From assembly GCA_002633005.1 (NCBI GenBank), contig NMRA01000927.1:5921-69920 (forward strand): 64,000 nucleotides of DNA, given 5' to 3'. Position numbers and translations under genes: made by a program. The stretch comes from Phoronis australis (taxonomy: Eukaryota > Animalia > Phoronida). Shown here one piece after another: positions 6,530-62,487 of the stretch. The notes below the pieces were generated by a model that was given only the letters and a program-made list of their open reading frames with translations, ran no database searches and had not been told where the DNA came from. Each line of letters opens with the position of its first letter. The first letter of the stretch is position 1.

Positions 6530-9376
6530 AGAATGAATTGCTGCAGCTAAAACCACGACATTCTCCACATGTAACCGAGTACGGCTATTCTAACTTCCTG
6601 CAAGAATATCTCTTGGAACTGCAGTTGATCTTACCCGAGCATCTCACTACTTTCAGCAGGTTCTCTGGTGCTGCTGAATGGTCCGTCGTTATGGGAATGA
6701 ATTTTCTACCTGCCATCATCCATCCCCAATACAGCGAGTCTAGGTCACTGCCACGGAAACTTGACCGCTCTTGCTCTTGATAATAATCCTGGAAGCATGG
6801 AATTTAGCTACTGAAGAAAGTTGGTGATAATGACTGTATTTGAACTGTGGCTAGACTGACACCTCATCCACAAATTGCCTGTATCCGAAGTCATCAAAAT
6901 TTCCAGAGCCAGTACCGCCATGAAGCACAGATACAACTCTTACCAGCTTCAAATACGTCTTGATTCAGCTGCATGTGTCTAGTGAATACTCTTACCAGAG
7001 TTTTTTCAGAATTCTCGATCACGCAGTTTCTTGAATGGGAGAGCCTTTGCTAATACCGAACAGCTGTAATGTTTGTTGCAACCACCTATTGCATGCGCAA
7101 ATGGCAAAACTGCGCAAGTTTCGGCACCAAGAAAAAACTGTAGTTCCTTGATGTCCCAGACTCTCCTCTTGCTTTGGTGTCTTTTTTGAAGTAGCATGGT
7201 AACGTAAAAGAACCAACAAGTCTGCAATAAGGGTAGTTGGACCCTGTTCTGCGTTCTCTACTACTATTTCTACAATTAAAACATCTGCGTCACCTTGAGC
7301 TTGTACCACTGTACAACCAGCACTTCCTAGCAAACTTGACAAGAAGTGAGTGAATCGTTTGTTTTAGCTTTTTGCCAAAAATGTTCCTTTTTTACTTGAT
7401 CACCATGTCACCATTGAAGTGAACTTCAGTTCCAACCACCCCACCCAGTCTTCGAACATGGGGGAAATCTTTAGTTGATGGTCCGTCTCAGTAACCATCA
7501 AAAACAACAGTAGGCTGGGTGCACTTGCTGATGTAATCCACATAAGCTCTACCAAATGATTGAAACGTTGCACCTCTAGGCCATGGAATACGGTGAAGGA
7601 GAGAACCGCCGTCGATTACATGCATCACCGTGTTTTCTGGAAATTGAAATCCTCAGGTAGTCTGGATCAGAGTGCATCAGCTCATATTGATTTAATAGCG
7701 AATCTGGGAAGACCAGATGTATCAAAAAGAACAGGGGAACCAACACACAGCTCAAACTTCAAAAGGCTTGATGAACTTTCACTATTGTTTTTTGCAGCTG
7801 TCAGGATTTGCTGAAATAGCAGCCGTGGATCCACTTGTGTAAAATTACTATTAGCAACATGAACTGATTGACTTGTCATTGCCTCAACCTTGTCTTTCTT
7901 TCTGAATGTGAAGTCTTTCACACTTGACCCCTCCATAGACAAGTGAACCGCCTTCCCCACTTCTCTGGCATTTTCGACATTGACGCATGTGCCTGCAGTC
8001 ACAACAAAGGCGATGTTCTGTAATGTTTCTCTTTAAAATGGGTTGCTGTTGTGGAGGAATTCAACAATGCTGCAGATGTCTTTGTCGTCACGCGACTGTC
8101 ATGCCTGGGTACAAATTATGCTGCTGACTTGTTTCACAACTAAAGTTTGTCACAGTCTGCATGGCACCATTTATACTTGAGCATGCCGGCAAGGAAAGCA
8201 GCCACGGTGCACTCTTTGTATCTCCCATTTCGCAACGTCTAGTTAAACCTCCTATTGCCTTAATACTTTTCATGAGCGTTTGTTCAATTTCAAGATCATA
8301 TCTCATTATGACAAGCCTGCCCAGAATCTGTCACTTTGTCTTATGGTTTGTTGTCCGTAAACGTCTGGACGGGTGTCTTTGAGTTGCTACGCCTGCTTCA
8401 GTCATGTATATGTATGAAGATTTTGTGACGAGTTGTGACCAGCAGCTGCAACGTAAGGCAGAATTTCAGAAACTTCTTTTAGGTGAAGCTCCCAATCTGA
8501 CGTTATTTCTGCTTTTAAAAAAGTCGAAGGATGTCAATCATCATATACTGTAGTCAAAGACTAATGATTCGACTTTGCATGGACAAGTCTGATTTATGTG
8601 CTTTGATTTTTTATGGACACCCACAAGACACTCCGTCCAGCATGCATCGTCGCACACAGACGTCATGCCAGCAATAAGATCATCATACTGCTTCAGACCA
8701 GCTCTCAAATCATCATCATGAAGAATATCATTGGACATTGATTCTTCTGACGAACTATTCTCTGTCACTGTGAATTCTGAAGACCTATACTCTGATTCAG
8801 TCGTGTTTGAATATACTAGTGGCAGTAGGTCGGAAACCAGAAGTGAACTCTCGTGAGGGCATTCCACTGTAATCCAAGGTTCAGAATCGGAAGACACTGG
8901 CTGGATATGGCATGCCCCATAGTATACATCTAGTTATGTGATCAGTTGGGATGTCTGAGATGTCTTAAGAATCTGTCTCCATCTTCTGACAAGCCACAAT
9001 TTGTGTACAAGCATTGAACTGCTCCACCTCTTGGCATGTAATCTGTGTGTTCTGTGTTGGTGACATTCCGCCGGGACTCCTGGAATTTCTGAAGAACCTG
9101 AATTTCTTTCTTCATTGGTTTTGGATTGGCGTTACTTGATCTGTCAATATTTGGAAGTGGGATGTTGAATGTTCTGGCTTTTATGATAGCATTCAGCGCT
9201 ACCAACATATGCCCCCTCACTGCTCTATCCACACTTTTTCCATTTAACAGTAGGATCACACTGTTTGATGCATACACCGTCTCAAGAACTCCTTGAAGCC
9301 CTGTGCTTGACATTACATATCCAATACATTCCAGAAAGCTCATCTCCGAGTATGAAATCTTCCAAGCCTGGCTAAG
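6530..9376 (-). pseudogene. Academ transposase/XPG-nuclease/Cys-finger pseudogene, copy A
   Basis: Fragments MSFLECIGYVMSSTGLQGVLETVYASNSV...GKSVDRAVRGHMLV; DLEIEQTLMKSIKAIGGLTR; DPRLLFQ...FELC..P..FDTSGL; XPG/FEN-like GDADVLIV..DLLVLL and HAIGGC; C-terminal Cys-rich finger at ~6540-6680; many stops and frameshifts. Confidence 0.75.
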
Positions 9377-9377
9377 N

Positions 9378-9881
9378 TGAACTCTCGTGAGGTCATTCCA
9401 CTGTAATCCAAGGTTCAGAATCGGAAGACACTGGCTGGATATGGCATGCCCCATAGTATACATCTACTTATGTGATCAGTTGGGATGTCTGAGATGTCTG
9501 AAGAATCTGTCTCCATCTTCTGACAAGCCAAAATTTGTATACAAGCATTGAACTGCTCCACCTCTTGGCATGTAATCTGTGTGTTCTGTGTTGGTGACAT
9601 TCCGGACACTCCTGGAATTTCTGAAGAACCTGAATTTCTTTCTTCATTGGTTTTGGATTGGCGTTACGTGATCTGTCAATATTTGGAAGTGGGATGTTGA
9701 ATGTTCTGGCTTTTATGATAGCATTCAGTGCTACCAACATATGCCCCCTCACTGCTCTATCCACACTTTTTCCATTTAACAGTAGGATCACGCTGTTTGA
9801 TGCGTACACCGTCTCAAGAACTCCTTGAAGCCTGTGCTTGACATTACATATCCAATACATTCCAGAAAGCTCATCTCCGAG
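9378..9881 (-). repeat. Third partial copy of Academ internal segment (~8844-9350), bounded by single Ns
   Basis: Near-identical to 8844-9350 and ~12159-12660; flanked by N at 9377 and 9882. Confidence 0.85.
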
Positions 9882-9882
9882 N

Positions 9883-10255
9883 TTGTATAGCCTCAAACTC
9901 CATCCGCATACTGCATGTGTATATATGGTGGCAGCCACTACCTTCCGCAATGACGTTGTTAGCACAGCGTATTTGATAGCCCCATCCCGCACGATTAGTT
10001 TCACCATCGAAGGATCCGTCAGTTGCTACAATGATGGCATTAATACCGCCAAGACCACGCCATTGCTGACGGCACAATGCTTGGGCTACTCCAGGAGGCC
10101 ATTCCCGAGCTTCCCTGTTGAAAGCAATGATGACATTCGGTTCCTCACCAAGTTCTTGTACTGGCAGCCAAGCAGCAACTTGCGCGATCATGTGTTCGCC
10201 GATGAGACCCATGGTTGCGTTAACAGCAGCGACAGTCCACGAGCACCTGCTAAGT
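9883..10255 (-). mobile_element. 5'-truncated non-LTR retrotransposon fragment encoding RNase H
   Basis: Open frame with IVATDGS...AGWGY...SMRMEFEAI (RNase HI catalytic D and E motifs); joins Academ copy B at 10256 and is cut by N at 9882. Confidence 0.75.
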
Positions 10256-12686
10256 CATGAAGCACAGATACAACTCTTACCAGCTTCAAATACAGCTGCA
10301 TGTGTCTAGTGAATACTCTTACCAGGGTTTTCTCAGAATTCTCGATCACGCAGTTTCTTGAATGGGAGAGACTTTGCTAATACCGAACAGCTGTAATGTT
10401 GTGTTGCAACCACCTATTGCATGCGCAAATGGCAAAACTGCGCAAGTTTCGGCACCAAGAAAAAAACTGTAGTTCCTTGATGTCCCAGACTCTCCTCTTG
10501 CTTTGGTGTCTCTTGTGAAGTAGCATGGTAACGTAAAAGAACCAACAAGTCTGCAATAAGGGTAGTTGGACCCTGTTCTGCGTTCTCTACTACTATTTCT
10601 ACAATTAAAACATCTGCGTCACCTTGAGCTTGCACCACTGTACAACCAGCATTTCCTAGCAAACTTGACAAGAAGTGAATGAATCGTTTGTTTTTGCTTT
10701 TTGCCAAAAATGTTCCTTTTTTACTTGATCACCATGTCACCATTGAAGTGAACTTCAGTTCCAACCACCCCACTCAGTCTTCGAACATGGGGGACATCTT
10801 TAGTTGATGGTCCGTCTCAGTAACCATCAAAAACAACAGTAGGCTGGGTGCACTTGCTGATGTAATCCACATAAGCTCTACCAAATGACTGAAACGTTGC
10901 ACCTCTAGGCCATGGAATACGGTGAAGGAGAGAACCGCCGTCGATTACATGCATCACCGTGTTTTCTGAAAATTGAAATCCTCAGGTAGTCCTCCACTGG
11001 ATCAGAGTGCATCAGCTCATATTGATTTACTAGCGGATCTGGGAAGACCAGATGTATCAAAAAGAACAGGGGAACCAACACACAGCTCAAACTTCAAAAG
11101 GCTTGATGAACTTTCACTATTGTTTTTTGCAGCTGTCAGGATTTGCTGAAATAGCAGTCGTGGATCCACTTGTGTAAAATTACTATTAGCAACATGAACT
11201 GATTGACTTGTCATTGCCTCAACCTTGTCTTTCTTTCTGAATGTGAAGTCTTTCACACTTGACCCCTCCATAGACAAGTGAACCGCCTTCCCCACTTCTC
11301 TGGGATTTTCGACATTGATGCATGTGCCTGTAGTCACAACAAAGGCGATGTTCTGTAATGTTTCTCTTTAAAATGGGTTGCTGTTGTGGAGGAATTCAAC
11401 AATGCTGCAGATTTCTTTGTCGTCACGCGACTGACGTGCCTGGGTACAAATTATGCTGCTGACTTGTTTCACAACTAAAGTTTGTCACAGTCTGCATGGC
11501 ACCATTTATACTTGAGCATGCCGGCAAGGAAAGCAGCCACGATGCACTCTTTGTATCTCCCATTTCGCAACGTCTAGTTAAACCTCCTGTTGCCTTAATA
11601 CCTTTCATGAGCATTTGTTCAATTTCAAGATCATATCTCATTATGACAAGCCTGCCCAGAATCTGTCACTTTGTCTTATGGTTTGTTGTCCGTAAACGTC
11701 TGGACGGGTGTCTTTGAGTTGCTACGCCTGCTTCAGTCAAGTATATGTATGAAGATTTTGTGACAAGTTGTGACCAGCAGCTGCAACGTAAGGCAGAATT
11801 TCAGAAGCTCCCAATCTGACGTTATTTCTGCTTTTAAAAAGTCGAAGGATGTCAATCATCATATACTGTAGTCAAAGACTAATGATTCGACTTTGCATGG
11901 ACAAGTCTGATTTATGGGCTTTTATTTTTTATTGACACCCACAAGACACTCCGTCCAGCATACATCGTCGCACACAGACGTCATGCCGGCAATAAGATCA
12001 TCATACTGCTTCAGACCAGCTCTCAAATCATCATGAAGAATATCATTGGACATTGATTCTTCTGACGAACTATTCTCTGTCACTGTGAATTCTGAAGACC
12101 TATACTCTGATTCAGTCGTGTTTGAATATACCAGTGGCAGTAGGTCGGAAACCAGAAGTGAACTCTCGTGAGGTCATTCCACTGTAATCCAAGGTTCAGA
12201 ATCGGAAGACACTGGCTGGATATGGCATGCCCCATAGTATACATCTAGTTATGTGATCAGTTGGGATGTCTGAGATGTCTGAAGAATCTGTCTCCATCTT
12301 CTGACAAGCCAAAATTTGTATACAAGCATTGAACTGCTCCACCTCTTGGCATGTAATCTGTGTGTTCTGTGTTGGTGACATTCCGGACTCCTGGAATTTC
12401 TGAAGAACCTGAATTTCTTTCTTCATTGGTTTTGGATTGGCGTTACTTGATCTGTCAATATTTGGAAGTGGGATGTTGAATGCTCTGGCTTTTATGATAG
12501 CATTCAGTGCTACCAACATATGCCCCCTCACTGCTCTATCCACACTTTTTCCATTTAACAGTAGGATCACGCTGTTTGATGCATACACCGTCTCAAGAAC
12601 TCCTTGAAGCCTGTGCTTGACATTACATATCCAATACATTCCAGAAAGCTCATCTCCGAGTATGAAATCTTCCAAGCCTGGCTAAG
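10256..12686 (-). pseudogene. Academ pseudogene, copy B (near-identical to 6919-9376)
   Basis: Colinear with copy A apart from scattered SNPs and short indels; same ORF fragments (10414-10707, 11017-11337, 11423-11641, 12196-12675). Confidence 0.8.
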
Positions 12687-13715
12687 AACAAGTGACTGCA
12701 GATCACTGAAGTTTTGTTTGCAGGCACTAATTTCCTCTAAAATCAGTTACCTATGTTCATAAAAAGCATGCATATTAAACAAATTGTGGGTCATAACTAT
12801 TAAAATTTAATTAATAACTTTTTGTTACACAATCCTATTTGCTTTTCATCAAATTCAGGTGAAATCAGCAGCCAAATTCCCAATACATGCCAGCAGCAGA
12901 CGAAATCGATGCTTGGGAACAACTAATAATATCTCCAATAACAGAGAAAAAAGCCACTTCCTGCCCTATTTTATTAAGGGTTTGTATAATGAATAAGCCA
13001 ATAACTCCACCAGAATAACACATTTTTCTAAAAAATATTATTTTTAATACCTCAAATGAATATATTTTACAGAAAAATATATGAGTTTGTAAAATTTATT
13101 ATGAAAATTTAACTAAAGCCTTTTCTGAAAAACACACCAACTTTTATGTTATATAATCTAAAATGTGATTAAAATTCCACATTTAATATATAAATCTTAA
13201 AAACAAAATTATAGAAACAAACAACTCATTAACCCTGACTGTAGATTGTAAAATGTTTTTGTGTAAATGCGTATCAGGTTACAAACAAAGTTTGCAGAAC
13301 GTAAATGCGGTAAATTGGGGTTTTTGAATTGGCAGCCATTTTGGCGGCCATTTTGTCAGCCATCTTGATTTTTTTCTCGCAAAACAGTGACCAATTGTAA
13401 GGTCCAGACATTTTCATACTGTCTAACTTACAAAAGAGTAAAACTTTTGCATTTTCAGGGCAAAATATAAAAAGAAATCTTGCAACATGTACCAAATTGC
13501 CGTTTCGGCCGCCATTTTGTCGGCCATATTGGTTTTATTTTACGGAAAATTGGCATCTCTTGATTGATATGCCTGTTATGAAAAGTATATAAGCAATGAC
13601 AAACTTTATTGTTTTATTTTTAGCTGTTACATAAGAGTAATATGCCAGAAAACAGTATAGCTGGCTGGCTATATTTTCCTGTACCGATGTAAAATAAACA
13701 TTTTACTGACTTACT

Positions 13716-13850
13716 CATGGGCGGCGCATCACTGAAATAAGTGTGGGGCTATAGCCCCATCCCCCTCTGGTGCTCGCCGCCCATGCCCATGGGCGGCGTA
13801 GCACTGAAATAAGTGGGGAGACTATGGCCTCCCCAGCCCCCTATAGAGCC
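13716..13850. mobile_element. 70-bp mini-element with CATGGGCGGCG TIRs followed by a second partial copy
   Basis: CATGGGCGGCG (13716) ... CGCCGCCCATG (ends 13785); then CATGGGCGGCGTAGCACTGAAATAAGTG repeats the start. Confidence 0.6.
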
Positions 13851-14095
13851 CACAGGCCTGTGATAGAGCCCAACCCTTGTTACTTCACTTACTTTAGTTA
13901 ACGGAAATCCATGTCGACTGTCTTGTAAGTCTTTTACACTGACCTCAATCGGCCAGCACCACACTTTCCAGTCTCTTGTTTAGCATTCTTCAGACAGCTA
14001 CTCTGTTACTTCTTGTTCTCTAGTTCCTACTCTTTTCTATCTTTGTATGATTCTATCAACTCCAACATCCAAGACTGTACTATGCGAATCGCGAA

Positions 14096-17000
14096 ATGTG
14101 TTTCACGCGCAAAACACGTACGCAGAAAATGGTTGTTCTAAGCAATAGGCTTAGTTGCCTCAAGTGTGCTATTGTATGTTTTGCATTACTTCCTCAGTCA
14201 ATGGGAGACATCATTGAGGTTGTGCCTGATGACATTGAAGTTCGTGAGGGTAGCACTACAAACGTGTCAATTCGGCAACGTTCGGCGAACTTCGGCCGAA
14301 TTAAAAGATCTTGGACTGCAATAATTAGGTTTGTGCATGGTGACATTACAGTTCTTGAGGGTACCACTACAAACCTGACAATTAAGCGATATTTTACGGA
14401 GACCAACGTACTTTTAAGGGCATGGTGGAGCATTCATACATTGGGAGGAAATAGTTATCCTTATAAAGATTTCTTAGAATATTCTGGATCTGTTTTGTTT
14501 GAGATGCATCAAGAGACAGCCGTGTTCCCCTTGACCGTTATAAATGACGATCACACAGAATATATTGAAAAGTTTCGTATAAATCTGGGAAAAGCATATC
14601 GACACGACATTAGGATACACGATGCAATCACTATAACCGTTCCACCAAACGACCATCCATATGGTTTGTTTTACATACCCGAAAGATATCGCTTCGTGTA
14701 CTTAAATGAGCTCGGCAATAACCGTTCGCAAATCACCGTTGAGCGCAAATACGGTCAACTAGGGGGAGTGACTGTTTTCTATCGCGTGATGTACCGACCT
14801 TCCGATAGATTTGTTCAGGAGCTTAAGGATATCCAGCGTGCAGACAAAGACGACTTTGACTATACCAAACTGGAAGGAGCATTGGAGTTTAAATGGAAGG
14901 AAAGCAGTAAGGTGATTAATATCGATATAAAAAAGGACTCTGTGCAAGAAGACAATGAATATTTTGAGATTCGAATTCTAAAGTGCAATGCTACGGTCTT
15001 ATATGCAGCCATCGGGAATGTACCTGTCTTTATCGACCAACAACAATCCCACAGCACGGTTGTCATAGTTCAAGACGAACATCCTTGTGGTCTATTTTCT
15101 CTGTGGCCACCAAATAAAACATTGAGCGAGAATTCCGTTACGACCACGATAAAAGTTTTTAGATCTTCAGGTTATTTGGGCAACGTGACCGTTAGCATGG
15201 TTGTGTTGGCAGCGGAAGGAAACATCAAGGATCGTATAAATGTCACGTTCAACGAAACTCAACAAGAAATTGAAGTTCACGTGGTCCTGCGCAAAGATTC
15301 CAAGGACAACAGACGCGATCATGTAACTACAATTTACATAGACAACCTTATTGTAGAATTGAAAGGTACAAACATTACCAATGACAGTCAGTCGTGGGCA
15401 GAGATTAGTCAGAACTCATCTTGTCAGTTTCAGTTTCAGTTTACAATTTCAAAACCACCAAAAATTTCCATACCCACAGAAGTGGTTACAAACAAGTCAG
15501 ACTGGAACAAAATGCCAAAAATGCCAAAGCGATTGCGAGTTGTAGAAAATGACGTCGTGGCATGGTTGCTTCCCCTGGGCATCATTGTTGGTGGCCTTAT
15601 TACAACTCTTTTCGTAATATTAATTTCAAAGTACATGCACGTGCCCACAGGAATTCCGGCAAGTAATGAAGAGCATACTTTTGAACACAAATTGATTAAA
15701 GAAGCTACCAACGATCTTATCAACAACGGAGAACTTTTCACTCTTGAGAAGCTGCTCAACATGTATGAGGAATTTTGTAGCGAACACGAAAATGGAAGCG
15801 ATATTCAAACGGACTTCGTGTTGATTCGTGAAGCAAAAGAGAAGATAGCACTTGTAAGGCGAGGTGCCACTGAAATTGCTGCCGAAAAGGAAACGATGGA
15901 ATTACTGAAAGAGGCAATTGAGAGAAACGACACTTCGGCTCTCGAGGACATTTTGACTAAACACGAATTATTTCTTATGAACCTGAAGTGGATCACACCT
16001 AAGGAAAGCTCTAGTGACGACAAAATTGTTCAGCAGAAACACGACCTTCTCAAGGAACTTGTAGACGAAGCACTACAAGTTAGTAAGTGTCCAGTTGTTG
16101 AAAAGTCTTTGGATGAATATTTACAGTTTGTGATAGAGCACAAGGAAAAGATTGTTGCTGACCAAGATCTTATCACTCGCGCAAATGACTTCATCAGAAA
16201 AAGTCAGCTACATGCCTATCACCAAAGATTAAGACACAAATTACGCGGTGCTATTCAAAAGCAGGATATAGGCAAAGTGCAAGCATTTCTTGAAAATTAC
16301 CAGGTGTTTGTATCTGAAAATGAACAAGAGATTGTACCAGACAAGGAGCTCTGTAACGAGGCATCTGCCTACGTGTTTCCTTCAAATGTGCAACTTGAGA
16401 GTGACGAAGAAAGTGCGTTTACGGTACCCGAATCAGTAGCCCACGAAATCTCCAATGAACCTCCATCTGGATCGCCCGAAAACTTGCTTGAAAACGAAAT
16501 ACAGGAAGAAGTCGACCAACCAAGACTGGACACGTCAGATGCAGTTACAGTAGAGCATAGCGTACCCAGTGAACCCTCTGTGGAAAAGAATATGATGATA
16601 CTGGGAGCGTCGGATGCAGCCGTAGAAGGCCAGGGTGAATCCAATAAAGACCCTGTAATGTTTGAAACGTCAGATGCAGTCATAGAAGTACAGGACCTAT
16701 CTATTGAAGCTCCTGTTGAAGAGAAGATATTAATTCAAACAGCCTTGGATGCGTATCTTTTATGGCGAAAATCAACAAAAGAAAATGAAAATCTCTCGTG
16801 TTTAAGTGAGGATTGCGATGATTTTATCAAAATGCTTTTGGAGCTCGTTCATGACAACCATGATGAGCAAGATGCCATTACTCGGCTTTTTACAGGCGGT
16901 ACTAATATAGAAGTTTCTAAGATTGCAGAAATTCCTAATTCGTTTGTTGAATTAAAGTCTTTTGTTTCGAACAAACCAGAACTGTTCCAATCAAAATCCG

Positions 17001-18277
17001 ATATCTTAAACACAATTGACCGGGCTTCAGATTTTGCGAAAATGCTTCATCGGTACGGCTCATTAAGATGTGATTTGATGAAAGCCGTTGATGCGAAGGC
17101 TTACGATGATTTACAAGCCACAGTTGCTGAGTATTCCCAGTACATTTCTGCTGATAAACTCGAGAATGTGGCAGACAAACAGTGTTTGGCTTCAGCCAAA
17201 CAGCTAATCGAAGACCTAGAAAATGAAATAAGACGCCAAAACCTAATGGAAGAGAGGAGCGAACTCGGCAAAAAATTGAAAAGCATTGTCCTGAATGGTA
17301 AAGCGGGTCTTGAGAAAGTTCACACTGATGATGTAGATGCCGTAACGGATGATAAGATTTGTATTGAAAGAGCTTTAGAAGCATACTTACAATTCACTGC
17401 CAAGCACGAGATCGAATCAGAAGGTAAGGATATCTCGGAGGCAAACGTTACTTTACATGAACTAGGACTTCTGATTGAGAACATGGGTACGGCAATAACC
17501 TTGAAAGATAATCTTTCGAATGTGCTTTGTTCAAGTCAGGAAGCTGTGATTTCGAGCGCTTTGCAAAACTATGTTGAATTTATCAAGTCGTGTAAGAACA
17601 AAATTGTTGCTGACAAAAATCTGATTAATCAATCACAAGGCGCGATTCGCTTAATTCGCCTGAAAGACAATTTACATGAAGCCTGGCTCAGTAGAGACAT
17701 CAAAACACTCGACTTAGCAATTGAAGAAGCCGACAAAAGTCTCTTAGAGGAAAAACTTGAACCAGATCTAGGAGTGGCTCGACGCCTGAGAGACAATTTG
17801 AGGCGCATCGAGCAGTTAAAATCGGCCATTCTCAACTTATCGAGAGCCACCATGATGGAGATAAGGGATTACAGAGAGCCACCGAAAGTAGTACATGACG
17901 TCATGGTAGCAGTGCTTCTGGTTCTTGGCGACGCTGAAACAGAGACGCGCGACTGGGCCACTTGCCAGAAGCTGTGTTGCTCTGTGCGAACGTCCACCTA
18001 TCCGGGTCTAATGAAGCGGGTGCAAGAATACAACTTTAAAGATCTGGAACCAGAAATTGCAGCTCGCGGAGAAAAGATCCTCGAGAGTTTTACCGAGGAC
18101 GACGTAAACAGTGTCAGCCACGGCGCTTACGTGTTCTATGTATGGGCGTTGAACATGTGCAAACAATGTCTGGCACTCGTAGATTACGCTCCTCGGCCCG
18201 CTAGCCGATCCAGGCAACATTCACTGCTATCCAATAAAAAGCGACTATCGACAGATCGAAGAGATAGACAACCATAA
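14096..18277 (+). CDS. Single-pass membrane protein: signal peptide, 3 Calx-beta domains, TM, helical repeats, C-terminal dynein-stalk-head (MTBD)-like domain
   Basis: Uninterrupted 1393-aa ORF. Signal peptide from M12 (ATG 14129, better context). Calx-beta motifs VINDDHTEYIEKFRINL, NDHPYGLF, IDIKKDSVQEDNEYFEIRI, DEHPCGLF. TM VVAWLLPLGIIVGGLITTLFVILI (15554-15625). N-glycosylation sequons concentrated N-terminal to the TM. C-terminal MEIRDYREPPKVVHDVMVAVLLVLG...W...VSHGAYVFYVW. Confidence 0.9.
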   Translation: MCFTRKTRTQKMVVLSNRLSCLKCAIVCFALLPQSMGDIIEVVPDDIEVREGSTTNVSIRQRSANFGRIKRSWTAIIRFVHGDITVLEGTTTNLTIKRYFTETNVLLRAWWSIHTLGGNSYPYKDFLEYSGSVLFEMHQETAVFPLTVINDDHTEYIEKFRINLGKAYRHDIRIHDAITITVPPNDHPYGLFYIPERYRFVYLNELGNNRSQITVERKYGQLGGVTVFYRVMYRPSDRFVQELKDIQRADKDDFDYTKLEGALEFKWKESSKVINIDIKKDSVQEDNEYFEIRILKCNATVLYAAIGNVPVFIDQQQSHSTVVIVQDEHPCGLFSLWPPNKTLSENSVTTTIKVFRSSGYLGNVTVSMVVLAAEGNIKDRINVTFNETQQEIEVHVVLRKDSKDNRRDHVTTIYIDNLIVELKGTNITNDSQSWAEISQNSSCQFQFQFTISKPPKISIPTEVVTNKSDWNKMPKMPKRLRVVENDVVAWLLPLGIIVGGLITTLFVILISKYMHVPTGIPASNEEHTFEHKLIKEATNDLINNGELFTLEKLLNMYEEFCSEHENGSDIQTDFVLIREAKEKIALVRRGATEIAAEKETMELLKEAIERNDTSALEDILTKHELFLMNLKWITPKESSSDDKIVQQKHDLLKELVDEALQVSKCPVVEKSLDEYLQFVIEHKEKIVADQDLITRANDFIRKSQLHAYHQRLRHKLRGAIQKQDIGKVQAFLENYQVFVSENEQEIVPDKELCNEASAYVFPSNVQLESDEESAFTVPESVAHEISNEPPSGSPENLLENEIQEEVDQPRLDTSDAVTVEHSVPSEPSVEKNMMILGASDAAVEGQGESNKDPVMFETSDAVIEVQDLSIEAPVEEKILIQTALDAYLLWRKSTKENENLSCLSEDCDDFIKMLLELVHDNHDEQDAITRLFTGGTNIEVSKIAEIPNSFVELKSFVSNKPELFQSKSDILNTIDRASDFAKMLHRYGSLRCDLMKAVDAKAYDDLQATVAEYSQYISADKLENVADKQCLASAKQLIEDLENEIRRQNLMEERSELGKKLKSIVLNGKAGLEKVHTDDVDAVTDDKICIERALEAYLQFTAKHEIESEGKDISEANVTLHELGLLIENMGTAITLKDNLSNVLCSSQEAVISSALQNYVEFIKSCKNKIVADKNLINQSQGAIRLIRLKDNLHEAWLSRDIKTLDLAIEEADKSLLEEKLEPDLGVARRLRDNLRRIEQLKSAILNLSRATMMEIRDYREPPKVVHDVMVAVLLVLGDAETETRDWATCQKLCCSVRTSTYPGLMKRVQEYNFKDLEPEIAARGEKILESFTEDDVNSVSHGAYVFYVWALNMCKQCLALVDYAPRPASRSRQHSLLSNKKRLSTDRRDRQP

Positions 18278-18549
18278 ATTGTGCCAGATCAGTAGAGATT
18301 GAATTCGCAATTAACTGTCATTCCGCGAGAGCTCCAAAAGGTCGTATCTACTCGGGTAACCGACCCAGATCTTGAAAAAATGTGTGCACATACATTCTGG
18401 TGGGATGTGTTCAAAATGCTTATTAAAACTTTTTGGGCCATTATTTTTTAAATTGGAGCATCATGAATATTTTGGCCCAAAGTAGCTCATTTTTGTCTCA
18501 AAAAGGTTCAGTTAGTGAAGTTATTTTAAAAGGACTTTTTCATATAAGC

Positions 18550-19015
18550 ATTTTATTTTTAAATACACTATGATATACAACAATGGGGTATATGCAAATG
18601 AAACACAGGCATACTCACGCACACACGCGCCTCCGCGCGCGCGTATCTAAATAATAGAACTTCACGGTTGATCTAATCTAAATAAGTATTGAGAGTTTCC
18701 CAAAAGGTAGTTTTACGGGGTTGTATATTTCTTACTTTACAATAATTATACAAGAAACATTGAAATTGTGAATATCTAGAAATAATCTGGTCTCTAGAAG
18801 ATTTATGAATGAAATACTGGCAAATAGATAATATGGTACTCATATCTTCAAAATTACATCCAAAATATGCTGCCAAAATAACATTTTTATCTAAGATTAA
18901 ATCGTATTGTGCAGTTACGTAAATTAAAAGTTTTTGAACCTCACACCACAAAGTTTTCTCAGAACCACATTCCACAAACACATGGTTAAAAGTTTCACAT
19001 ATTTGTTGTGCTTAT
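18550..19015 (-). mobile_element. 3' fragment of an L1/Tx1-type LINE (C-terminal zinc-knuckle region of ORF2)
   Basis: Minus frame CETFNHVFVECGSEKTLW...ILSICQYFIHKS, matching the ET..H.F..C.....W zf-RVT pattern. Confidence 0.6.
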
Positions 19016-22000
19016 GCAGACAGTGAACCTCTCTATCAGAGGACAGTCTGAATTTTTAAAGGGGTTTCCGTTAAACTTCAACGGAGTGCCAAAACTCTGT
19101 AAATTTTGTCCCATTTTGTGTCTTTGACTTTTAGCCATTTTTTTGAGATGTTATGGGGCCAGTTTGTGGGGTACTGGTGATTTCATTGATATTTTTCATG
19201 AATTTGCTGTCTAAGAAAATAAAGAATAAAAAAGTATGGGCTTTTTGTTTTCAAGCATCAGCTGATAGAAAAGACATACCATCGCGTATTATAATGTGCC
19301 TGACCACGAGCAGTATGCATAAACCTCAGTCATAAAGGGGCTTCATTAATTTTTGCAAATATGTTTCTATGGTGATCAAATCAGTCGACGTCAATTTTAA
19401 GATACTTTGACTACTGTTGGCCTCCTGGTGGCAGTTTCTATAACTAGATTTCTATGGTGAAATTTCATGAAATTTGACCAAAACGTTTCCATTGAGGAAA
19501 CGATGGCACATGCATGTTTGAGAACGGCGTTTCAATGTTAATCTAATTCTGTTACGATATTTTATTTTCTGTCTATTATTGTACCTGAGGATGCCTTGAG
19601 TGATATCGAAAAGTCCTTTACATGGAGCAGTTTGCGCCGATTTTTTCTCCACGTCTTACTTCTAGTTTAGCCAAAATCTAATATTATTTACATGCATGTT
19701 TTCGAATGAGTCTAACCTGTGCCGACACACCGGAAACCGTTCAAGCGTCTAACATGTGCCCCCGTCAACTGCTAACTGGTGCCCCGGTAACGCCCACCTT
19801 ACTACCTGATAATCATTACATAAAACATATAAAGTCACTTTAATCTGAATTTTGCCATTTTACATGATCCTAATCGTTTAACCTATTCCACCCAAATCTG
19901 ATTTTGTCACTTGTTGTCACAGTCCAATGAGAGATAAAAATGACATCTCTTAAAATTATTGGACACAAGGGTTTCAAAATTTTCATCGTAGCTAAGGCCT
20001 ACACCCAACAAAGTGATCTCAGTAAAAATTAATACTAAGATGATCCTAACAGCCTTTCGCCACAGTAAGTAACTTAGAATCTACTTTGAAATTTTTCAGA
20101 AATACAGGGTGAACTAAGCTCATGTTAAGTATGAAAGTAGACATGCAGAATTATTACCATGGCGACTGAGTGCCAGATGAAACTTTTCGTACTTGAAGTA
20201 GAAATTGACCAGCATGTTAATAAATAATATGAAGCTTTAATCCAAATGTAACCCTATGCTGTAAATAAAGTATTACTAAGATTTTTCACATTTTGTTGCT
20301 TTGATATATCTTGAAGTAGAAAGTAACTAGTTACAAAACATGAATCAAAAGCGCATTTTGTGCATAGAAAAATATGTATTCTGTTGTGACGCAAAATCAT
20401 ACCTTGAACAGCAGTTGACTTTCAAACAAAAAACGATTTCAGAACGAATTCAAAAGAATTTAGCAGAATGCAAGGTCAATTGAATGGCACTTCACATTGA
20501 GATAAATAAAAGATTCATGATAGGTATGGAACAAGCATCGGTAAACTGTACAAAACTGCTTTTTGTACCAGTGGGTCTACAAAGATATTGTTGTTAAATA
20601 TTCATGACAATGTAGTCTGTTGAACATGCCTTTCAGTTCAGAAAAGTCGCCATGTTTTCCAACGTGAATTGTGAGCACTTTAACCACTCAATTCAAAAAG
20701 TTACACCTGCGTGATTAAATTCTGATGTAAACTCTTGGATTGTGCAGAATGGCAGGTAAAGAAATGTGTTACCTTACTAAATATTATTGCTAGAATATTT
20801 GTGAAAATAAGAACTTTAAATCTGTAACTTATTCTGCTGACATCACAAGATGGCCGACTCGACAGAAATAAAGTGATTCAAAATTTGACCCATAAACAGC
20901 GATAACTTTTGAATGCACCATGCGATTTTGATAATTGTTTCGTTTTTTTTTTATTTCAGACATTGATGCCTTTCCTGTGGTGGAGGTTGTTGTCTTCAAA
21001 GTGAAAAAATAAATTTCGGTTCGACCGCTTAATTAACACAGTCTTGAACCCTTAATTCAAACGAATTTTTTATAAATAACAGTTGAATTGTCTTGAAATA
21101 TTGCACAAATCGGAATATTTTATAACGAATCACATGAATTATTCATGTCAGCCTAACAATTGCCTCTAACGTCGTCAACCGTTTTGGGTATTGGCACCAG
21201 GCAAATATGTCGTCACTTTTGCCAGTGTGATCTGTGATCCACAGTCATTTATGAACGCTCAATGGGTGAAATGGTAATATGGACATGTCATACAGCATTA
21301 TGCTCCCTAAAATGTTGATTCTCATTAATCATCTTTCTTGAAACCATTTTAAATGCAACGAATAATATTTGTTTTAAAATGTAGACTACACAACATCGGG
21401 TCATTTTTTGTTCTAAAACAAAACATGAAAAAAGGCCATTCGAGATTTTTTTTTCACATATCCAAGAACTATCCAAAAACATAAATTTCAATGTCCACAG
21501 CCCCGCAAACTGTCTTGTAGAATTACATCAGTTTTTGTGTGCATTACTAGACATATCTGTACATTATAACAAAAATACATCTTGTTCAAGGAAGTTCTTT
21601 CCTCACAGCTGTCCATTACATTGCCCCATACCACGGTCATTATTGCGCCATTGCCCATTTGGCACACTCTGTAAGCAGCGCCAAGCTGATCCATACTAAT
21701 TCGAGAAGAGCCTCACGAATTTTAAGCTCCTTTGTTGTTAGACCAGGCAGTAACTCCAAACAGCCCAGAAGAGAATCCTCCGGAATATATCAAAATTCCA
21801 GTTATAATGCTCACACGTTATGACTTATGCGTAAGACCACAGATTTGGTCTAGGGAAAATATACGGAGTTGGTGGTCCATGTACTATAGTATGTGATGCC
21901 ACGATACTTACGAGATTTTCTTAATCATTCGGTTCTTAACAACTCGTGTTTTTATCCATTATATTTTGTAGTCACAATATAATAAGTTATATCAATCATT

Positions 22001-41765: not shown

Positions 41766-42150
41766 TGCCATATGAGGTGTCTGACGTCTCATGTCTGGTG
41801 CATTGGTGCCATAAGACAGCTCCAACCAGTCATAAATGAATAAGAATAATAGGTTATGTTGCTCTGACTGCATAGTGGTGAAGAGTCTTGACTGAATAAG
41901 AATAAAGCTAAACCACATCCCTGTATTTTGTTGAATTATTTTCATTTTGTTAGTTTTAAGGCATTTCTAAAAACAGGCTTTTTGAGTGCTATGCCATAGC
42001 TCTGATTAAAGTGTGTGCACTTTTTAGTTGCTTACGTTTTGCGGTGACGCCGCCGAGGTCTTAAGTTGGTAATTCTTTTATCCTTACCTTCTCATTTCTG
42101 CTGCTGCCCTCTGCTGCCCTGTGCATGACCACTGGCCCCATCTCTTGCAG

Positions 42151-42423
42151 AGAAGAAATGCTTCTACGCACTAGATAAAGAGCGTGGTCTAAACTACCAG
42201 GGTCGTATGAAGAAGTCGAAGGATGGGCACCGCTGCCTGTTCTGGACGTCACGTGGTGCCCAGCGTCGCTACAAATACTCCGATGCGAGCTTCCCTGATG
42301 ATTCAATCAGTGATGCCCGCAACTTCTGCCGCTCACCGAAGGATAACGATCGCCCACGCGAGCCATGGTGCTACATTTCAGAAAACTACCCATACTTTGG
42401 TTATTGTGACGTGACTAACTGCG
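42151..42423 (+). CDS. Receptor exon 3: complete kringle domain
   Basis: TTGCAG| EKKCFYALDKERGLNYQGRMKKSKDGHRCLFW...ARNFCRSPKDNDRPREPWCY...GYCDVTNC |GTGAGT; six Cys; 273 nt, phase 1-1. Confidence 0.92.
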
Positions 42424-42522
42424 GTGAGTTCGTGGTGGTTGTCTAAATCCTTGCCAATGCCGCTGCCTCTGCTGCTGTTGGTGTGGCTGCTACAATGTTG
42501 TCAGTACTGGTAACGTGGCCAC

Positions 42523-47972: not shown

Positions 47973-48615
47973 NNNNNNNNNNNNNNNNNNNNNNNNNNNN
48001 NNNNNNNNNNNNNNNNNNNNNNNNNNNNNNNNNNNNNNNNNNNNNNNNNNNNNNNNNNNNNNNNNNNNNNNNNNNNNNNNNNNNNNNNNNNNNNNNNNNN
48101 NNNNNNNNNNNNNNNNNNNNNNNNNNNNNNNNNNNNNNNNNNNNNNNNNNNNNNNNNNNNNNNNNNNNNNNNNNNNNNNNNNNNNNNNNNNNNNNNNNNN
48201 NNNNNNNNNNNNNNNNNNNNNNNNNNNNNNNNNNNNNNNNNNNNNNNNNNNNNNNNNNNNNNNNNNNNNNNNNNNNNNNNNNNNNNNNNNNNNNNNNNNN
48301 NNNNNNNNNNNNNNNNNNNNNNNNNNNNNNNNNNNNNNNNNNNNNNNNNNNNNNNNNNNNNNNNNNNNNNNNNNNNNNNNNNNNNNNNNNNNNNNNNNNN
48401 NNNNNNNNNNNNNNNNNNNNNNNNNNNNNNNNNNNNNNNNNNNNNNNNNNNNNNNNNNNNNNNNNNNNNNNNNNNNNNNNNNNNNNNNNNNNNNNNNNNN
48501 NNNNNNNNNNNNNNNNNNNNNNNNNNNNNNNNNNNNNNNNNNNNNNNNNNNNNNNNNNNNNNNNNNNNNNNNNNNNNNNNNNNNNNNNNNNNNNNNNNNN
48601 NNNNNNNNNNNNNNN
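47973..48615. other. Assembly gap
   Basis: Run of N. Confidence 1.
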
Positions 48616-49225
48616 GGTAATCATACGCTCAGAGAGAAGGGTCAAATACTGTTAAAAAATCGCTTTTGGCAAGAAAGGCGAAAAGAATATAAAGAAAGGG
48701 TGTCGAAAATAAAAATTTATGTAGTAAGTATTTTCGGATACTGGAACCACATGGGCAGTTTGAGAGAAGGACTTTAAGACTTAAATGTGGTGTTATGCTC
48801 ACACTTCGCAGTTGCTGAATAAAAGCCTGGAAATGATTTTTACAGATTCTCTCAATGGCTGGCAATTATGAATAGGTTCAAAGACACCTTCGTTATTTTA
48901 CTGAAGTTATTTTTAATTACTTTCTAAAATAATTACGTGCAGCGTAAGACCAAATTTCCGACTCAGAAGTCACTTTTCAGTTCCCAGGGCTCTAGTGGTA
49001 GTTGTGCTTGACTAAATTGGTGAACATGAGTAGTAGTACATAAGGTGATCAGCAGCCAGAGATGGAGATTTCTTGTGAGAGTTTGGAATTTTCGTTGTTT
49101 TGAAATATTCCAGTTAGTTTCCTGAAGTTCCTATATTTTTTGCGTCAGCCTAAGGGCCGTTTCAACATTTGGAACTGCAGTGGTTGTGAGACAATGGAAG
49201 TTAAGCAATGATACTTTTCTTTTAG

Positions 49226-49513
49226 TCAAGGTACAGATAACCAAGTTCTACAACGATAAAGTGAACCCTGGGACAACCTTGACCAGTTTGACCTGTGTCA
49301 TCACCGCTGACCCTCGACCCAGAGCGGATGACATCTCGTTGGCTAACACTCGTTCTGCTCGCATCAGCTATGCGAGGGTGGAAGTGAAAGAGGTCGGCCA
49401 GTACAGCATGTCGAAAACTTGGATTGGCGCAGCGATTGGTGCAGGAGACGAATACACATGCACCTATGGAGTTGACCCTTCTATCAGCAAGACTATCGAA
49501 GTGCAGTTCTTTG
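49226..49513 (+). CDS. Receptor exon 5: Ig-like domain
   Basis: TTTTAG| VKVQITKFYNDKVNPGTTLTSLTCVITADPRP...GDEYTCTYG...IEVQFF |GTATGA; 288 nt, phase 1-1. Confidence 0.88.
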
Positions 49514-49614
49514 GTATGACATTTTGTCTATTTTGCCAAGATGTTAGATCAGAAAAATCGTGGTAAAGTGTGACACAAATAATAGGCTAAATACTTTTTA
49601 CACATCGTCAATAT

Positions 49615-56330: not shown

Positions 56331-56358
56331 NNNNNNNNNNNNNNNNNNNNNNNNNNNN
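56331..56358. other. Assembly gap
   Basis: Run of N. Confidence 1.
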
Positions 56359-61115: not shown

Positions 61116-61558
61116 GTGAGTAACTCCATTTTTTGTTCTTTGCAATTGAGAGCATTCAAACAGGTTAATGTCAGTCTATGAAAACCAGCATTGGTTGGGA
61201 GTCTTACGTAAATGTGGTTTTGCTGTAGTGGCTATGTCAAGGTAACGCTCAGGTTTTATTAGTTGTTCCTGGTGTATCAATTAAAGTGTCCAAACTACGC
61301 AATGCTATTTGTAGGAGGTCTGGTACACGTTGTACCTGATGTGCGCAGGCCGTGCATGTGGGCCCATCGCACAGATCACCTACAACCGAGCTTAGCAGCT
61401 GGAAACTTGACTCAAGGGTCTAACTGAGTGGCTCAGTGATACTCAATCCCACGACCTCGAGTAAAGGAATCGTATCAGTATGCCACTCTGCCTCCTCAAC
61501 GCTGTGTTGCACATAAGATTGGATGAATTCTTTGTAATGTTTGACTTCATTTTTCCAG

Positions 61559-61785
61559 CACCGTCTGCACCTGTCAATATTGCTGTGACGATGGCCAACA
61601 GTTCCGCCCTAGAGGTGGCCTGGAACGAGCCCCTGGAGACGCGTGGTGAAATCACGCTGTACAGCGTTCGTGTGCTAAGGCTTGGCGGGCACATGCAAAA
61701 GAGCTGCTTCCTTAAACGGCCGTTTGGTCAAACCAAGCGCTGTCTAGTCAAAGGCCTTGTGGCATTTGCTAATTACACTATACAG
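61559..61785 (+). CDS. Receptor exon 10: FN3 #3
   Basis: TTCCAG| TPSAPVNIAVTMANSSALEVAWNEPLETRGEITLYSV...VKGLVAFANYTIQ |GTGAGG; phase 1-0. Confidence 0.92.
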
Positions 61786-61826
61786 GTGAGGTTGGGTATA
61801 GCAGACCGTTGAGGCTGTCAGCACTT

Positions 61827-62108
61827 AACAGCTTATTATTTAAAATGACTTATTCTTATTAAAATGACATAGGCAAAAAATTGAATTTTGGACTTCAAAA
61901 GCGAGGCCCTCTATATTAATATAGGGTGCCCCGCTCTCCGGCCTCCATTCGGCGGGGCCCCTATATTAATATAGGGGCCCCGCTCTCCGGCCTCCTTTCA
62001 GCGAGACCCCCTATATTAATATAGGGGGCCTCGCTTTTGAAGTCCAAAATTCAATTTTTTGCCTATGTCATTTTAATAAGAATAAGTCATTTTAAATAAT
62101 AAGCTGTT
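61827..62108. mobile_element. Young fold-back MITE, ~100-bp near-perfect TIRs, 4-bp TSD ACTT (Sola-like)
   Basis: AACAGCTTATTATTTAAAATGAC... / ...GTCATTTTAAATAATAAGCTGTT; ACTT at 61823-61826 and 62109-62112. Confidence 0.88.
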
Positions 62109-62487
62109 ACTTGCTTTTGATCAAAATCAACCCTAGCAACTGATCACCTGTTCAAATGGACATTTTCTTTTTGTTTGTAGCCTTAACATGAAAATCAATT
62201 CTGTTAAAAACTCCACCCTTGTCTAAATATCTTCTGATCTATATGTATTAATGTCTTCTCATTAGGGTGTGTTAATGGTGATGTAGGACCCTAGAAAAAT
62301 GTACAAAGTTGGCTGAGCGGGTACAACGCGTTTTTGATCCCATTTGAAGTTTTGTGAATATAGAGACTTGTATAATTCAGGAAATTCTAGGAGTATACTG
62401 TTAGAGCATTCCGTGCCCCGTGAAATATGATCATTATTCTTGTCGTGACGTGCTACATTGTGACGACCATTATCTGTCTGTCATCAG

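Follow-up and report, generated by a model that had tools for sequence, protein, structure and literature searches.

Phoronis australis P0001, a predicted single-pass Calx-beta protein ending in a dynein stalk-head-like domain: a candidate membrane-to-microtubule tether

Textbook adhesion receptors contact microtubules via adaptors or cortical motors. ADGRV1 (VLGR1) is an adhesion G protein-coupled receptor with dozens of Calx-beta domains, linkers of the ND.P.G.F type, and GAIN, seven-transmembrane (7TM), EAR, and pentraxin parts. Here, we analyzed a stretch of 64,000 nucleotides from the phoronid Phoronis australis (GenBank assembly GCA_002633005.1, contig NMRA01000927.1, positions 5,921 to 69,920 of the forward strand; hereafter the window). 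Its DNA is of animal type and has one long frame, an intron-free open reading frame (ORF) of 1393 codons at 14096..18277 on the plus strand, which specifies the 1393-amino-acid (aa) protein P0001. An earlier note, made from the sequence alone, had read this protein as a Calx-beta ectodomain joined through one transmembrane helix to a cytoplasmic tip resembling the microtubule-binding domain (MTBD) of dynein, and the motifs that it quoted were found where it had put them. If this were true, a receptor ending in dynein's binding head would provide a one-molecule link from the cell exterior to the microtubule lattice.

Like ADGRV1, P0001 has Calx-beta domains with ND.P.G.F-type linkers. Unlike ADGRV1, it contains two to three of these domains and one transmembrane helix, and it has no GAIN/GPS, 7TM, EAR, or pentraxin part; the cytoplasmic regions of the two proteins are wholly unlike. 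The earlier note had likened the array to that of ADGRV1; in view of the missing GAIN and 7TM parts, a tie beyond a common type of domain is not supported.

The stalk-head tip and its tubulin-contact positions

The tip spans aa 1214-1368 (17735..18199; all features of P0001 lie on the plus strand) and carries the coiled-coil helices CC1 and CC2 as short stubs, with neither an AAA ring nor a long stalk. A phmmer search with the tip retrieved DNAH6 at an E value of 5.2e-5, and 25 of the 26 matches listed were constructs or heavy chains of dynein, the assignment being based on length in two cases; only 3 matches were better than 1e-3. The profile of a 94-sequence tip family matched the yeast dynein MTBD at an E value of 2e-12, and dyneins accounted for 44 of its 45 matches. 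An AlphaFold2 model of the tip from a 94-sequence alignment had a predicted local distance difference test score (pLDDT) of 91.9 and a predicted template modeling score (pTM) of 0.84, whereas a fold of the single sequence reached a pLDDT of 46.8 and was discarded. The ten best entries in a Foldseek search with the model all contained dynein. In VIA (48,161 chains), the model matched the dynein stalk region of 5ayh with a Z score of 17.3 and a root-mean-square deviation (rmsd) of 3.1 Å over 146 residues, and 3err with a Z score of 17.1, as compared to 8.0 for the highest row that was clearly unrelated and a noise level quoted at ~13 for helical proteins. Residues 1214-1368 align to residues 3262-3413 of 5ayh over six helices; CC2 stops after ~20 residues, and P0001 ends ~25 residues beyond the aligned segment. 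The Pfam model PF12777 gave no match to P0001 at E<=1 and a weak match in 6 of the 96 relatives scanned. As to the affinity register, VIA preferred the motor-free stalk crystals 5ayh and 3err, the latter being the low-affinity form, whereas the Foldseek rmsd favored 6kjn (high affinity) over 6kjo (low affinity). Taken together, the sequence matches and the model indicate that the tip is a real dynein stalk-head fold, free of a motor. This agrees with the assignment in the earlier note, which had proposed comparison of an AlphaFold model with dynein MTBD structures. The "MTBD-like" motif of TTLL11, also considered, is unrelated to this tip, as judged from excerpts of PMC12366701.

According to excerpts of a study of yeast dynein (PMC7042235; Nishida 2020), six residues form salt bridges, namely, K3117, E3122, and R3124 in helix 1, R3152 and R3159 in helix 3, and R3201 in helix 6; mutation of each basic residue among them reduced affinity more than 2-fold, and K3116 and K3204 were dispensable. 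Excerpts of other work show mouse R3382 facing acidic residues of alpha-tubulin (PMC4987762, PMC4230729) and an interface with the microtubule that takes in helices 2, 3, 4, and 6 (PMC6629372; Lacey 2019). We mapped the contact positions via the family-profile alignment, the yeast numbering being checked on the aligned yeast sequence. P0001 keeps four of the six salt-bridge positions: all three in helix 1 (R1250, E1255, and R1257) and, at an uncertain alignment, one of two in helix 3 (R1298). K1292 lies in the middle of the helix, at a place where alternatives are used in Dictyostelium. DNAH6 also has four of the six, as counted by eye, but it possesses the basic residue of helix 6, unlike P0001. 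Across 122 family tips, the most frequent number of positions kept was two; at least four were kept in 15 tips and one or two in 65. The glutamate whose partner in dynein is R402 of alpha-tubulin was invariant (122/122), and the next arginine position carried K/R in 94/122. Across the family, this glutamate is the best hint that the partner resembles tubulin, although its role might be structural. Furthermore, the near-invariant tip residues E1255, P1262, G1278, W1287, S1341, and W1350 are all present in P0001, the stretch from helix 3 to helix 4 is basic (+3; family median, +4), and the protein ends in a basic tail (aa 1365-1393, 18188..18274) in which 9 of 29 residues are K/R and 2 are D/E.

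We propose, with a probability of roughly one half, that P0001 is a putative passive, low-affinity, ATP-independent tether that connects a calcium-stiffened extracellular link to cortical microtubules. The first two Calx-beta domains would bind Ca2+ and together make up a stiff rod touching the matrix or another cell, and the ~700-residue repeat region would serve as a spacer from the membrane to the microtubule. The head would dock at the tubulin intradimer site via helix 1 (R1250, E1255, R1257) and the basic residues of helices 3 and 4, assisted by the basic tail. Because there is no AAA ring, the stalk register would be fixed and the affinity of the head not switched by ATP. The affinity would be low because the helix-6 arginine is lost, and firm anchoring would consequently need clustering of the receptor.

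A number of observations weigh against this proposal. The helix-6 arginine that contacts alpha-tubulin (yeast R3201, mouse R3382) is S1339 in P0001; in the family, this position is K/R in 13/122 and D/E in 54/122 tips, and a possible substitute one residue before it (K/R in 67/122) is an asparagine in P0001. In helix 3, R3152 is lost (A1288), and a 3-residue insertion, unique among 130 aligned tips, renders the equivalence of R1298 and R3159 uncertain. Helix 6 has a net charge of -3 and the whole head one of -5, values that put P0001 within the most acidic 10% of family tips. Given these lost contacts, the more than 2-fold drop in affinity reported for each single basic-contact mutant, again in excerpts of PMC7042235, counts in the same direction. 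No orthologue of P0001 was found in the homologue, ectodomain, and metagenome searches detailed below. Moreover, the fold is present in non-dynein axonemal chains (9fqr_Xl, 7jrj_I, and 7jtk_C), where tubulin contact may be absent.

The non-dynein chains that matched the tip fold, with VIA Z scores of 7.4-10.0 and a Foldseek rank of 25, were 9fqr_Xl (Z 10.0), 9ya2_L (Z 9.7), 9e5c_2e, and the radial-spoke chains 7jrj_I (Z 7.4) and 7jtk_C. Size was the basis on which 9fqr_Xl, 9e5c_2e, 7jrj_I, and 7jtk_C were judged not to be dynein heavy chains; we presume, unconfirmed, that 9fqr_Xl may be EFCAB5 and that the radial-spoke chains may be RSP2. There were no such MTBD-like chains among the 60 of 85 sequence matches listed. 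In the same structure, chain 9fqr_Hl is labeled "Radial spoke head protein 9 homolog"; it has 4583 aa and aligns like DNAH10, so that the label is probably an error. Chain 9ya2_L is a Toxoplasma intraconoidal-microtubule chain of 162 residues (range 1207-1457) located on the microtubule. It is probably ICMAP2 (1678 aa, ~10% resolved), an unconfirmed identity: for 9YA2, the accession order in excerpts of PMC12819142 leads to ICMT-2 and the entry title to ICMT1. According to the same excerpts, ICMAP2 decorates the microtubule at an 8-nm repeat and binds as a dimer between protofilaments, unlike dynein, which is a further point against dynein-like docking of P0001. Provided that the chain identity holds, ICMAP2 is a probable precedent for a motor-less stalk-head fold on a microtubule, with a different geometry. 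The word "dynein" appears two times in PMC12819142, both in a single entry of the reference list, and "MTBD" is absent from it. Likewise, no non-dynein chain with an MTBD-like fold is named in excerpts of PMC10266980 or of PMC11779644 and the supplements searched.

Such observations would also fit a stalk-head fold repurposed as a protein docking module for a light chain, an adaptor, or a scaffold, with tubulin no longer bound and P0001 acting as an adhesion receptor coupled to a scaffold. The absent helix-6 arginine, the acidic head, the 65/122 family tips with just one or two of the six contacts, the non-dynein axonemal chains, and a dynein head solved with light chain 1 (6l4p) all favor this reading, which we nevertheless consider less likely than the tether in view of the tubulin-facing glutamate in 122/122 tips, the complete set of helix-1 contacts in P0001, and the basic character of both the helix 3-4 stretch and the C-terminal tail. 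Alternatively, the tip could bind microtubules at the dynein site in order to compete or to regulate, instead of bearing load as an anchor; close to adhesions, for example, it might keep motors off cortical microtubules. The shared fold and helix-1 contacts imply a shared footprint, and the predicted low affinity fits a dynamic role; a weak binder, however, would be expected to lose to processive dynein, and this role appears very improbable. Returning to the tether, the contact evidence is mixed and points to a putative binding that would be weak at best.

Gene, ectodomain, and cytoplasmic repeats

RNA reads were mapped to positions 8000-20000 from three runs of the same species (X5, X6, and X7; 18-19% of each run read), which belong to one study, different from that of the DNA. 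Coverage across 14416-18425 was even, with a depth of 31-47 fold in X5 and 21-40 fold in X6, and the depth in X7 was <1 fold over the ORF. In the X5 and X6 pairs, the first mate lay almost wholly on the minus strand, an orientation that denotes plus-strand RNA in most stranded libraries. No RNA joints inside the ORF were found among the joints listed, with 19 others outside that listing. The RNA depth falls after the bin that contains ATTAAA (18422..18427, plus strand), a candidate polyadenylation signal. One contig of the DNA run X1 spans 14590-18485 at depth 9 with one difference from the window, and the gene is flanked by repeats with an X1 depth of 130-1600. Since the RNA coverage has no listed joint inside the ORF and the depth-9 contig lies between repeat flanks, the gene is real, its coding part is unspliced, and its expression is confined to part of the samples; it is apparently single-copy. 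A second match to P0001 was not found elsewhere in the window. The ORF is therefore transcribed throughout in two of three runs. Nothing supported the ciliary or sensory site suggested in the earlier note, the RNA runs carrying no tissue labels. The Kozak context of Met12 (position 14129) is better than that of the first Met, and the true start may be there.

It is hardly credible that the fusion arose by misassembly or that the ORF is not one transcript. The RNA reads are of 151 bases, so that no single molecule spans the ORF, and the assembly itself may have been built from run X1; nonetheless, one DNA contig runs through both parts, and RNA from the separate study covers the ORF without gaps, on one strand and with no listed joint inside.

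P0001 is predicted to be a type I single-pass surface protein because its hydropathy profile shows an N-terminal stretch and one strong helix, and because most N-glycosylation sequons (12 of 19, within aa 38-487) precede this helix. The putative signal peptide, identified by hydropathy, comprises aa 1-37 (14096..14206), with cleavage after Gly37 judged by eye; its hydrophobic stretch is weak (best window aa 13-31, 1.72). The single predicted transmembrane helix is at aa 488-511 (15557..15628) and reaches a Kyte-Doolittle value of 2.55 at aa 492-510. Between them, an alignment revealed a partial copy of the first strands of Calx-beta domain D1 (aa 40-76, 14213..14323), followed by D1 itself (aa 77-186, 14324..14653; Pfam PF03160, E 3.5e-4), in which the acidic Ca2+-site motif at 150 is present, and D2 (aa 187-329, 14654..15082; Pfam E 6e-6), which largely keeps this motif. 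In the decayed third Calx-beta-like domain D3 (aa 330-455, 15083..15460), the acidic motif is gone and Pfam is silent on D3 alone; the first half of D3 could be aligned to NCX1 and to a sponge Calx-beta array, and the NCX1 calcium-binding domain matched the D2-D3 span at an E value of 1.5e-5. Of the three Calx-beta domains claimed previously, two are therefore clear and one is decayed, and there are just two linkers of this type (NDHPYGLF and DEHPCGLF). Against Pfam, whole P0001 gave Calx-beta (E 4.8e-10, 2 stretches) and no other domain, and this, with the one transmembrane helix, upholds the motor-less membrane architecture that had been claimed. A search with the ectodomain retrieved 4 matches, none with a stalk-head tip, the best being a sponge Calx-beta array at 25% identity.

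The cytoplasmic middle consists of ~9 helical units of ~55 aa, chosen by eye. In a repeat test in which each unit was compared with a leave-one-out profile and 300 shuffles, six of the nine units exceeded every shuffle, and the other three were equalled or bettered by 5-8 of the 300. Repeats R1-R4 (aa 531-765, 15686..16390), which this test supports, are separated from R5-R9 (aa 868-1243, 16697..17824) by a linker (aa 766-867, 16391..16696), acidic and probably disordered, in which a short SDA(V/A) repeat occurs three times, and the last unit merges into the CC1-like helix of the tip. The mostly helical repeats after the membrane helix thus agree with the earlier description. A myosin of the dinoflagellate Durusdinium (P0164) contains ~18 copies of the same type of repeat in its tail and has no stalk head.

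The tip family and the origin of the fusion

A HMMER scan with the tip profile produced 464 non-redundant representatives at E<=0.001 (138 at 1e-10), of which 150 (P0002-P0151) were listed, with 314 beyond the listing. The listed proteins have 94-2303 aa, and none is a whole dynein heavy chain. Hosts, looked up for 28 matches, include sponges, a ctenophore, a brachiopod, annelids, molluscs, a hemichordate, a tunicate, and amphioxus. Among the 71 listed matches with at least 400 aa, 44 were similar to KY (kyphoscoliosis peptidase)/hillarin, 8 were single-pass, 2 were multi-pass, and 17 were other proteins; transmembrane assignments were made by hydropathy only, and several proteins may be 5'-incomplete. 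In the matches listed, the motor-less head terminates KY-like, EF-hand, VWA, CD20-like, and short stand-alone proteins, and 24 of the 44 KY-like members start with MGxxx[S/A]. With the 8 single-pass and 2 multi-pass proteins, the module is thus frequently found on predicted membrane anchors, a point in favor of the tether. A 356-aa member from Haliotis has been automatically named "cytoplasmic dynein 2 heavy chain 1-like." Thus, the sequences indicate that the tip is a widespread invertebrate module, which the earlier note had missed. No Calx-beta domain was found in the 96 relatives scanned with Pfam or, by phmmer with the P0001 ectodomain, in the 150 listed.

Because the tip ends at least eight other single-pass proteins with different ectodomains, the receptor-plus-tip design appears to be recurrent, and it is the Calx-beta version alone that was not seen elsewhere among the proteins examined. 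We tentatively suggest that motor-less heads form a family of plug-in microtubule anchors, from sponges to amphioxus, repeatedly fused to receptors and lipid-anchored KY-like proteins and offering a direct grip without adaptor or motor.

A quick tree was computed from 122 tips (8 near-duplicates removed from 130) and a careful, unrooted tree from 40 chosen among these. In both, the P0001 tip falls inside an annelid/mollusc KY-like group, which has a support of 99/98 in the careful tree and is there a clade of nine rows that holds six KY-like proteins, two short unlabeled ones, and P0001. Constraining the nine single-pass rows together versus the KY rows was rejected (approximately unbiased [AU] test, p 0.0105, unrooted; the quick tree was already known when the group was defined). 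Since the tip nests with KY-like tips and the single-pass grouping is rejected, the receptor fusion in P0001 would have a separate origin, and receptor-plus-tip proteins were most likely built more than once. Among fragment matches to the family, 22 of 26 stop at a Val just before the helix-3 tryptophan, a residue found there in 4/122 full tips, from which we infer read-through into a GT donor, i.e., a family intron. The corresponding position in P0001 (17950..17951, plus strand, between codons 1285 and 1286) has no intron. The tip of an annelid/mollusc-type KY-like gene may thus have been joined to a Calx-beta ectodomain, and the absence of the intron suggests that the P0001 gene either went through an RNA intermediate or shed its introns.

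P0001 could instead be a chimeric retrogene, specific to its lineage, in which the tip is a decaying passenger and either the Calx-beta ectodomain does the work or the gene has little function. Consistent with that reading are 4.2 kb without introns where relatives show one inside the tip, a long end branch (1.19 vs a median of 0.72), the unique insertion, the decayed D3, and the orthologue not found in the searches made. However, 1393 codons have stayed open despite just 38% identity to the nearest tip, the near-invariant residues are all retained, and transcription is even and varies between samples; in addition, no poly-A remnant or convincing target-site duplication flanking the gene was found in the window. 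We therefore regard a passenger tip as improbable. The searches behind the missing orthologue comprised a word-indexed homologue search with the tip, which retained none of 1138 candidates, a profile search among proteins of 1051-3000 aa (1 match, the Durusdinium myosin, by its helical repeat only; weak evidence for absence), and a metagenome scan with P0001, in which none of 18 pattern matches was confirmed, and P0001 was not found in a 15-billion collection. In the ESM Atlas, the tip led to unnamed mollusc-rich clusters (0.93) and to one cluster (0.83) with PF12777 in 14% of its members, a lead only, and whole P0001 gave no usable match.

If binding were shown, P0001 and its relatives would represent a new class of adhesion receptors that directly hold microtubules. 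The family also offers hundreds of natural stalk-head variants without a motor, in which the helix-1 glutamate is invariant and the helix-6 arginine mostly gone, so that contacts for binding and contacts for motor coupling only become testable. For many invertebrate KY-like proteins, it further hints at what the unannotated C terminus may do.

Elsewhere in the window, exon-sized plus-strand frames encode a Kringle domain (42129-42446; Pfam E 1.4e-15), an Ig-like-looking segment with no Pfam match (49126-49566), and a fibronectin type III domain (61465-61812; E 3.5e-9), which probably belong to a single spliced receptor-type gene or to several. At 6919-12686 lies a tandem duplication with a period of ~3.3 kb (2466 bases at 96.6%). 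Its minus-strand frames are broken and its DNA depth reaches the hundreds, and it resembles the remnant of a transposon. Inverted-repeat pairs (44-170/1829-1958 and 4411-4717/5060-5379) and a palindrome (61820-62115), of 130-320 bases, resemble miniature inverted-repeat transposable elements. Assembly gaps (runs of N at 47973-48615 and 56331-56358) are far from the P0001 gene.

Relationship to known systems

P0001 shares with the dynein MTBD (PF12777 MT; 5ayh, 3err, 6kjn/6kjo, 6rzb; DNAH6) a six-helix head with CC1 and CC2 as entry and exit helices and the E-I-R, PP, W, S, and W motifs. In contrast to dynein heavy chains, which have ~4000 or more aa, it has no AAA+ ring, linker, or tail; it also lacks the long antiparallel CC1/CC2 stalk, and its head is C-terminal in a membrane protein. 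The non-dynein MTBD-like chains have a motor-less head as in P0001 but, as far as seen, are not surface receptors. Like invertebrate KY/hillarin-like proteins, P0001 combines a C-terminal helical repeat with a head, whereas Pfam detects in it neither of the domains of these proteins (Ig-like_KY PF23265, with or without Transglut_core PF01841), and it has an ectodomain and a transmembrane helix where they have an MG start. A description of a stalk head in KY-like proteins was not found in the literature searched, nor one of the P0001 architecture or the tip family in the open literature, subscription papers being mostly outside its scope.

The proteins most similar in layout are XP_078700756.1, XP_035689228.1 (amphioxus CLCA/VWA), XP_077867321.1 (Saccoglossus EGF), XP_077966891.1 (Styela VWA), and a Cys-rich protein of Pleurobrachia, which share with P0001 an ectodomain, one transmembrane helix, helical repeats, and a terminal head. 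They differ in their ectodomains, do not form one clade with P0001 (AU p 0.0105), and are known by automatic annotation only. Judged by its domains, P0001 is not a dynein, not an ADGRV1, and not a KY protein, because one defining feature of each fails when tested. It resembles, rather, a putative membrane-to-cytoskeleton linker assembled from known parts.

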